From a virus (taxonomy: Monodnaviria; Loebvirae; Hofneiviricota; Faserviricetes; Tubulavirales), in IMG/VR virus record IMGVR_UViG_2617270961_000002: DNA of 8,932 nucleotides; one strand, 5' to 3'. This document shows, in pieces, positions 8,115 to 8,360 of this stretch. The position numbers were made by a program, and so were the translations under genes. Position 1 is the stretch's first letter; the number at the start of each line of letters is the position of its first letter. The notes beneath the pieces are model-generated. The model was not told the DNA's origin, made no database searches, and saw nothing but the letters and a program-made list of their open reading frames with translations.

Positions 8115-8360
8115 CTACTCCCCCGAAACCATATCGGAAGCCTCAACCATATCCAGATAGCCAACCCACGATCCGGAAGGAACTGAAAGAGGAACAAGAA
8201 CGAACTCTGGACCAATCAAACGAAGGCAGTAATTGATCAGCTCATCAAAGGAGTCACATTTTAACCAAAGACCATCAACACGGGCTGTACAGTAAACAGG
8301 AGCTGTCAAGTCAGAACCAAAACTAGGGAAGTAATCGTAGTAAACAATCTCGTGAGACAT
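8115..8360 (-). CDS. Hypothetical 81-aa protein, translationally coupled to the Rep gene
   Basis: ATG at 8360; its stop TAG overlaps the Rep start region (TAGTATG) and its 3' end carries the Rep Shine-Dalgarno sequence; first gene of the minus-strand operon after the divergent intergenic region. No recognisable motif. Confidence 0.5.

Follow-up and report, generated by a model that had tools for sequence, protein, structure and literature searches.

The 8,932-nt DNA of the filamentous phage recorded as IMGVR_UViG_2617270961_000002 (hereafter the window, meaning the whole stretch that we analyzed) carries, directly 5' of its replication (Rep) gene, an open reading frame (ORF) of 81 codons on the minus strand (8115-8360; ATG at 8360-8358, TAG at 8117-8115), which we term ORF81. 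We found that ORF81 is a real protein-coding gene, a divergent long form of PHROG 3104, a catalogued and uncharacterized inovirus family. This assignment follows from the match to the family profile, from a homolog with 51% identity, from the ratio of nonsynonymous to synonymous substitution (dN/dS) and from a constant junction with the Rep gene. The 81-codon length is by itself uninformative, because the window holds many spurious ORFs of similar size.

The predicted product, an acidic protein of 81 amino acids (aa), aligned over residues 1-71 to positions 1-67 of the 69 positions of the PHROG 3104 profile (E = 4.7e-5). A 65-aa protein from the prophage of E. coli E24377A, to which ORF81 is 51% identical (E = 3e-23), matched the same profile at 3.5e-25, and the 71-aa ORF located 5' of Rep in Vibrio phages matched it at 1.4e-42. 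Profile searches gathered 65-77 clusters, every one of them a stand-alone protein of 50-85 aa without a Pfam domain, and the sources of these clusters were all Vibrionaceae, Enterobacteriaceae or metagenomes. Although catalogued, the family is wholly uncharacterized, and database records leave the gene unannotated or name it 'hypothetical', as is the case for all of the clusters gathered here. Compared with the family norm of 65-72 aa, ORF81 reaches its 81 aa owing to an 8-residue insertion and a C-terminal tail.

Conservation at the protein level was evident across the family. Four residues (G30, W32, S37 and L41) are invariant between the Vibrio and E. coli members, and ORF81 shares with the Vibrio members the motifs IxYYD, G-x-W-D and S-x-x-x-L. 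The Nei-Gojobori dN/dS ranged between 0.05 and 0.46 over eight pairwise comparisons, including 0.15 for the window against E. coli TD225-C4, 0.13 and 0.33 for the enterobacterial short forms and 0.05-0.09 for the Vibrio members. Judged by these ratios, the amino-acid sequence of the family is under purifying selection.

The preliminary description of this DNA had listed ORF81 as a gene without an assigned family, and in terms of function this still holds: searches of Pfam, NCBIfam and PADLOC gave no match, and PHROG 3104 is itself a family of unknown function. Neither a megablast of the whole window nor a tblastn of ORF81 against the phage collection gave a match, and ORF81 could be linked to known phages solely by way of the 65-aa E. 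coli homolog and the PHROGs. With ORF81 alone as the query, a word-indexed protein search yielded a single near-identical cluster, and among 1.8 billion representatives an exhaustive phmmer search found one fragment together with long proteins showing multi-stretch, low-identity matches, which we treated as spurious. A profile search of PDB sequences gave a best E of only about 1. In the profile scan of genome contigs, where confirmation was by the first sequence of the alignment, one locus was confirmed.

The junction with Rep and its bearing on Rep translation

The gene downstream of ORF81 (6113-8113, minus strand; ATG at 8113-8111) encodes a 666-aa replication endonuclease of the Phage_GPA/P2 gpA type, with matches to Pfam Phage_GPA (PF05840; 7e-49) and to phrog_91, 'nicking at origin of replication' (5e-129). 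Its start at 8113 agrees with the RefSeq annotation of a close relative, a 2001-nt 'replication endonuclease'. Upstream of this ATG the Rep frame remains open for 34 codons, from a TTG at 8215, and relatives differ in how long this extension is and in its sequence; a frameshift fusion joining ORF81 and Rep would require a +1 shift.

As the preliminary description had it, the 81-aa ORF ends at the Rep start, in a TAGTATG string that can be read directly from the sequence, and the ribosome-binding site of Rep is embedded in its 3' end: a Shine-Dalgarno-like GGGGGAG (8118-8124, minus strand) lies within the last ORF81 codons, 4 nt ahead of the Rep ATG. That description also had the stop overlapping the Rep start context, which is correct for the TAGTATG string and not for the start codon, as a single spacer base (8114) leaves a 1-nt gap between the two genes in the window. 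In the closest relatives GAG occurs in place of TAG, such that the ORF enters Rep by 8 nt and reaches a length of 82 or 84 aa. The start of ORF81 itself is preceded, 5 nt 5' of its ATG, by a weak candidate Shine-Dalgarno, GGTG (8366-8369, minus strand), as read from the sequence.

The proposed physical coupling to Rep was also borne out beyond the window, in that homologous small genes precede Rep in other integrative inoviruses, including Vf33, Vf12, VfO3K6/f237, VfO4K68, VALG phi6/phi8, the Vipa phages and E. coli dif-site prophages. We know of no counterpart at this position in the Ff phages, going by their established map. The gene occurred directly 5' of Rep in 12/12 context groups, with junctions ranging from a 1-nt gap to a 17-nt overlap. 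Next to a Phage_GPA Rep, we observed the 1-nt gap of the window and an 8-nt overlap in TD225-C4 (three tandem copies) and four other E. coli assemblies. Next to a Rep_trans Rep, the overlap was 1 nt in the E24377A-type prophages and related (metagenome) contigs (TAATG or TGATG), 10 nt in contig L007 and in pB72D, a 10.2-kb circular Citrobacter replicon (episome), 11 nt in the V. cholerae prophages beside rtxA, and 17 nt in VALG phi8, the Rep of which is of the Rep_trans type (phrog_453); in a marine metagenome contig the gene overlaps Rep by 1 nt. At every homologous locus compared, a purine-rich Rep Shine-Dalgarno lay within the last codons of the ORF. Architecturally, the coupling of ORF81 to Rep is real.

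The form of the ORF tracked the type of Rep, being 81-84 aa with GPA (where two putative repressor alleles occur) and 65 aa with Rep_trans (where the allele is that of the window). With a Phage_GPA Rep attached, ORF81 is unusual in its family, Rep_trans being the usual partner. In Vibrio, a variable gene separates the divergent regulator from the small ORF, and the constant neighbor is thus Rep rather than the promoter. Whether in phages, plasmids or genomes, every PHROG 3104 gene found was next to a Rep gene and in an inovirus-type replicon. The plasmid collection yielded only three matches, all of them inovirus-type replicons of 6-10 kb, among which pB72D carries a full inovirus gene set and another has the length of f237 (8784 bp). 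Its invariant place against Rep in phages of V. cholerae, V. parahaemolyticus, V. vulnificus and diarrhoeagenic E. coli makes the family a tractable target.

Two further observations concern these contexts. In V. cholerae (L009, 4441-4998), the gene before the small ORF differs by strain, encoding 113, 145 or 185 aa, with an RNase_T exonuclease domain in one version; accessory genes seem to accumulate in this slot. Contig L007 (NZ_JAXCEI010000036.1, 8359 bp) belongs to an Actinomadura monticuli assembly and represents an inovirus that carries a Rep_trans module together with a homolog of PHROG 3104; its major coat protein, AEDATSQAKAAFDSLTAQATEMSGYAWALVVLVVGATVGIKLFKKFVSRAS, looks If1-like. 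It is probably contamination from an enterobacterial phage, and may be mosaic.

The preliminary description went beyond architecture and held that Rep translation probably depends on ORF81, a claim that is weakened by the close relatives, in which Rep appears to be started independently without ORF81. Chromosomal prophages closely related to the window, some in tandem arrays and some adjoining hipBA, were present in 57 of 5426 complete E. coli genomes. Rep, at 95-97% identity, was found in all 57, and the ORF body (8105-8320) in just one of the 5426. None of the other Rep loci that we inspected (n = 5; L004, L012, L013, L014 and L002) had such an ORF before Rep. Relative L004 retains the promoter, the operators and the ATG TCT CA of the ORF and then runs for nine codons in frame into Rep, the ATG of which is preceded by its own GGAGGGGAGC, and L013 has GGGGGGATTA ahead of a GTG Rep start. 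These are strong Shine-Dalgarnos, unlike L012 (3990-4060) and L014 (2540-2610), in which the Rep ATG follows a U-rich leader, gcgttttttattcgtttttATG, with no Shine-Dalgarno. In L002 (E. coli WP8-S18-ESBL-07; 10520-11485), the slot of ORF81 is occupied by an IS110-family transposase gene that stops 2 nt short of the Rep ATG. It seems that the signals for translating Rep have been swapped along with the regulatory module.

An IS110-family transposase gene stands directly before Rep in several relatives. The L002 prophage itself is located between ybiB and hcxB, not beside hipBA, which suggests that this phage backbone also integrates by another route.

That ORF81 is an optional accessory, needed neither for the translation nor for the function of Rep in this phage lineage, is well supported, because relatives carry a near-identical Rep without it; reinitiation from ORF81 may nevertheless contribute to Rep synthesis in this phage. 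The strictest form of the dependence model, in which translating the ORF opens or feeds the Rep start and the peptide itself is functionless, would account for the stop/start junction and embedded Shine-Dalgarno kept across the family, and it could draw on the minimum-free-energy fold, in which downstream sequence pairs with part of the Rep Shine-Dalgarno and ATG. However, RNA structure around the Rep start was no stronger than in shuffled sequences (z +0.87), Rep has its own Shine-Dalgarno, and ORF-less relatives exist. Moreover, purifying selection and four invariant residues, the confident compact fold predicted for the homolog, and a length of 65-84 aa, far exceeding that of known leaders, are not what this model predicts. 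It is largely refuted by the conservation data, and we consider it highly improbable. For annotation, the lesson is that tight stop/start coupling to Rep does not equal dependence of Rep on the upstream ORF. Natural ORF-plus and ORF-less phages share an almost identical Rep and putative repressor, and are therefore directly comparable.

Predicted fold and candidate roles of the ORF81 protein

The ORF81 protein has an isoelectric point (pI) of 4.05 and a net charge of about -9 (to -11), with few arginines or lysines. The AlphaFold model of the 65-aa homolog showed a beta-beta-beta-alpha-beta topology with a predicted local distance difference test (pLDDT) score of 82, exceeding 85 at residues 1-50. 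The model of ORF81 had the same core (pLDDT 69.5, ordered at residues 4-57), the first hairpin holding the 8-residue insertion and residues 60-81 forming an acidic tail of low confidence. It is thus well supported that ORF81 encodes a small stand-alone domain, very acidic and of beta-beta-beta-alpha-beta topology, in which nothing points to catalysis or to the binding of DNA. Foldseek searches against viral models gave E values of 0.035 or worse, all to unnamed proteins.

The top fold matches of the homolog model were HicB-like antitoxin domains, a weak resemblance to the N-domain structures of the HicB/UPF0150 antitoxins TTHA1013 (PDB 1wv8) and SWOL_0700 (PDB 3k6q). At the sequence level we rejected a HicB relationship: hhalign of the family alignment against E. 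coli HicB, the sequence of which was verified against 6HPB, gave a probability of 0.13%, and the HicB-type Pfam families were matched by 0/33 family members even at E 10. HicB systems have a HicA toxin gene alongside, whereas ORF81 has none, there being no further gene between the putative repressor gene and Rep. Most HicB proteins also have a C-terminal DNA-binding domain, whereas none of the 77 PHROG 3104 clusters contained a fused ('Rosetta stone') form in which the small protein is joined to Rep or to a DNA-binding domain. A DNA binder of the Cro, Cox or Xis type was rejected as well, because the protein is too acidic and has the wrong fold, with no helix-turn-helix match and a model that consists of a beta-sheet and one helix.

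ORF81 is the first gene of the early operon, which in the mechanism that we favor would be transcribed from a promoter controlled by a divergently encoded small basic protein. With a stop that precedes the Rep ATG by 1 nt and final codons that contain the Rep Shine-Dalgarno, ORF81 delivers the ribosomes that complete it to the Rep start, and this junction is what stays constant throughout the family. The coupling would mainly serve to yield the small protein alongside Rep, when and where replication begins. The protein itself would most likely work by binding another protein, considering its pI, its charge and its lack of a Pfam, NCBIfam or PADLOC domain, and considering that the HicB, DNA-binder and leader-peptide readings fail. 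The invariant position, the purifying selection and the compact acidic fold together suggest that the family bears on inovirus replication control or on host handling. The role of a replication accessory or regulator, as suggested in the preliminary description, may apply. Our leading guess, which we rank first and hold tentatively, is that ORF81 binds Rep, or a host factor used by the initiators of both Rep families, and thereby modulates Rep or the rolling-circle replication of the replicative form. In its favor, the junction with Rep is invariant and stoichiometry-enforcing, and the form of the ORF goes with the type of Rep.

A number of observations weigh against this guess and the operon model around it. 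Dispensability of the ORF weakens a role in replication, and a Rep-specific cofactor is hard to reconcile with a 95-97% identical Rep that lacks the ORF in 56/57 genomes. The Rep_trans inoviruses CTXphi, fs1, VSKK and KSF-1 were among the Rep matches in the phage collection and not among the PHROG 3104 matches. The ORF contains the Rep Shine-Dalgarno, so that selection would remove insertions separating the genes, and adjacency to Rep may on this account be a frozen accident. For the promoter, the search found 2 sites where 1.4 are expected in shuffled sequences, and promoter and operators alike are consensus matches only. The portability of the ORF between two Rep families suits a host-directed accessory at least equally well.

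Such a host-directed accessory ('moron') would be an acidic protein that binds and neutralizes some host protein that is conserved in both Vibrio and E. coli. Examples would be a nucleoid silencer, a toxin or nuclease of a defense system and, for superinfection exclusion, a component of entry or a receptor. The place of the gene before Rep would be explained by an early, repressor-controlled expression slot. The patchy distribution, as accessory genes show, and the presence of two unrelated Rep families downstream both fit this proposal, as does the occurrence of the same putative repressor allele with the long form, the short form or no ORF, indicating independence from the neighbors. Other cargo also uses the slot before Rep, namely the IS110 transposase of L002 and the variable V. 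cholerae genes, one of them encoding RNase_T. Strong acidity and the fold matches to HicB-like antitoxin domains, which neutralize a partner by binding it, point the same way. However, the gene was never seen away from Rep or outside inovirus-type replicons, and in none of the contexts examined did cargo lie between the gene and Rep. The protein had no PADLOC match and no similarity to known anti-defense proteins, although no search was aimed at anti-defense families. We regard this alternative as somewhat unlikely and rank it below the replication role.

PHROG 3104 could, in addition, represent a new class of Rep-coupled effector, a stand-alone acidic domain of HicB fold, produced in step with the rolling-circle initiator. 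Its partner would be Rep or some protein that the Vibrio and E. coli hosts share, and by binding it the domain would set the level of replicative-form replication or protect it. Posed in this form the idea is speculative and on balance unlikely, and the same is true of the host partners that one might name for it, such as the superfamily 1 (SF1) helicase or SSB machinery on which both Rep families draw, a toxin or a defense nuclease. If it were true, the family would be a portable control or anti-defense module of pathogen-associated filamentous phages, including f237, a phage associated with pandemic V. parahaemolyticus O3:K6.

Regulatory surroundings and the remainder of the window

A sigma-70-like candidate promoter for the ORF81-Rep operon, found by consensus match, lies upstream of ORF81 (8394-8423, minus strand; TTTACA, an 18-nt spacer and TATGAT, 10/12 matches), and the region is conserved in relatives L003, L022 and L004. 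Two CGCATGCG palindromes (8383-8390 and 8426-8433, with inverted-repeat arms at 8380-8391 and 8425-8436) flank it on either side; they are kept in the relatives that have the same putative repressor allele, and may be operators. The divergent gene (8495-8710, plus strand) encodes a 71-aa basic protein of pI 9.6, the putative repressor of the operon, which matched phrog_2503 (unknown function; 1.5e-27) and, weakly, a 'DNA binding protein' PHROG (0.053). By its sequence pattern, unconfirmed by any tool, we read it as a possible ribbon-helix-helix protein. Downstream of the putative repressor gene and on the same strand is a 51-aa hydrophobic ORF, MQITSDLILDLLIKHFVVGSITGMTIFSLITLVLPLVMTIHNKLSKDTEIL (8774-8929, plus strand), which is conserved in L004 and L012 and could encode a small membrane protein of a lysogeny module.

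With a basic protein encoded divergently, ORF81 might instead act as an antirepressor or switch, the acidic protein binding the small repressor and locking the phage into replication. The charges are indeed opposite (pI 4.05 against 9.6), the enterobacterial members are the first gene after the promoter that the putative repressor would control, and a single block of 97-98% identity, passed on among otherwise different phages, unites the first 14-15 codons with the promoter and the putative repressor gene. Yet the same putative repressor allele occurs in relatives without the ORF (L004 and L014), the same form of the ORF occurs with the other allele (L001), and in Vibrio the regulator is an unrelated DUF3693 protein with another gene before the small ORF. 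We judge this possibility to be quite unlikely.

The block in question (8317-8720; 9001-9404 in L003) comprises the putative repressor gene, the promoter and those first ORF81 codons. Its counterpart is found in Rep_trans-type E. coli prophages (such as that of E24377A, adjoining hipBA), which have other Rep and structural genes. TD225-C4, in turn, has the ORF body and Rep as in the window combined with an unrelated promoter region and the other putative repressor allele, and many relatives match the window only up to 8107-8110, the second Rep codon. Taken together, these patterns place recombination boundaries at the Rep start, inside ORF81, where the shared block stops, and at the ORF81 start. 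The boundary at the Rep start codon is one across which phages swap their regulatory modules, their accessory genes and, in some cases, a transposase gene.

All of the large genes of the window are on the minus strand and constitute an inovirus (filamentous phage) gene set. In addition to Rep, these are a secretin (68-1276), a Zot/pI-like assembly ATPase with the Pfam Zot domain (2063-3274), a 118-aa gene (3277-3633), a pIII-like gene with Gly/Ser repeats (3636-5030), a coat-like gene (5082-5342) and a 141-aa gene (5657-6082), with several small ORFs besides. In the pIII-like gene, a 39/78-nt tandem repeat (4101-4355) encodes the Gly/Ser-rich linker of the protein; the length of this gene is 1320-1410 nt among relatives, and the repeat number of the linker probably varies between them.

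The gap between the Zot/pI and secretin genes (1315-2049) contains 2.2 copies of a 339-bp tandem unit (95% matches), and is only 177 nt long in the TD225-C4 relative. The unit also occurs dispersed, at 3-29 places per genome, in just 9/5426 complete E. coli genomes. These dispersed copies and the shorter gap in TD225-C4 suggest that the unit is a small non-autonomous mobile element that inserted into the phage. Rfam gave no match anywhere in the window, the 339-bp unit included, and a search for a dif-like XerCD site found no match to E. coli dif in the window at <=3 mismatches.

Comparison with known systems

The proteins closest to ORF81, at 95-96% identity, are WP_216334011.1 (82 aa, TD225-C4) and the P0001 cluster (84 aa), which precede the same Rep and differ in having GAG for TAG and therefore an 8-nt overlap. 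WP_000017777.1 (65 aa, E24377A), the 51% identical homolog, shares with the window the first 14-15 codons, the promoter and the putative repressor gene at 97-98% DNA identity, and differs in preceding a Rep_trans Rep through a TAATG junction.

Among the Vibrio phages, the homologs are VALG_phi8 gp02 (YP_010768660.1) and the unannotated 71-aa ORF located before vpf402 in Vf33, Vf12, VfO3K6/f237 and VfO4K68. The classical ORF1-10 scheme of Vf33, f237 and Vipa omits this small ORF before Rep (PMC10790759). Like ORF81, these proteins are stand-alone, acidic and encoded directly 5' of Rep, with overlapping stop and start codons in the case of Vibrio. They are about 20-25% identical to ORF81, and at 71 aa they lack the 8-residue insertion and the acidic C-terminal tail. 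Their genes are followed by a Rep of the Rep_trans rather than the Phage_GPA type, usually have another gene before them, and are accompanied by a DUF3693-type regulator.

For a small replication accessory, the nearest functional precedent is RepG4 (PA0717) of Pseudomonas phage Pf4, which resembles ORF81 in being a small product of the early operon of an integrative inovirus and in not being the initiator itself. Deletion of RepG4 eliminated production of the replicative form, and RepG proteins carry an arginine-rich C-terminal motif, with 14-15 arginines in 70 residues, for which DNA binding has been proposed (PMC12328805). Compared by composition only, ORF81 is the opposite (net charge -9 against arginine-rich), and we rejected its assignment to the RepG type. 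RstC, of the RS1 satellite of CTXphi, is comparable in logic to the antirepressor reading of ORF81, although the genomic context argues against a repressor-specific partner of that kind.

The junction itself has its parallel in plasmids. In the tap-repA genes of IncFII and the repY-repZ genes of IncB/IncI, the leader ORF has its stop at, or overlapping, the rep start and contains the rep ribosome-binding site; these leaders are short and act only by being translated, in concert with RNA structure and an antisense RNA. ORF81 resembles them in that its stop lies at the Rep start and the Rep Shine-Dalgarno lies inside it. It differs from them in that the junction shows no unusual RNA structure, whereas the ORF81 sequence is constrained and its product is predicted to be a folded protein.

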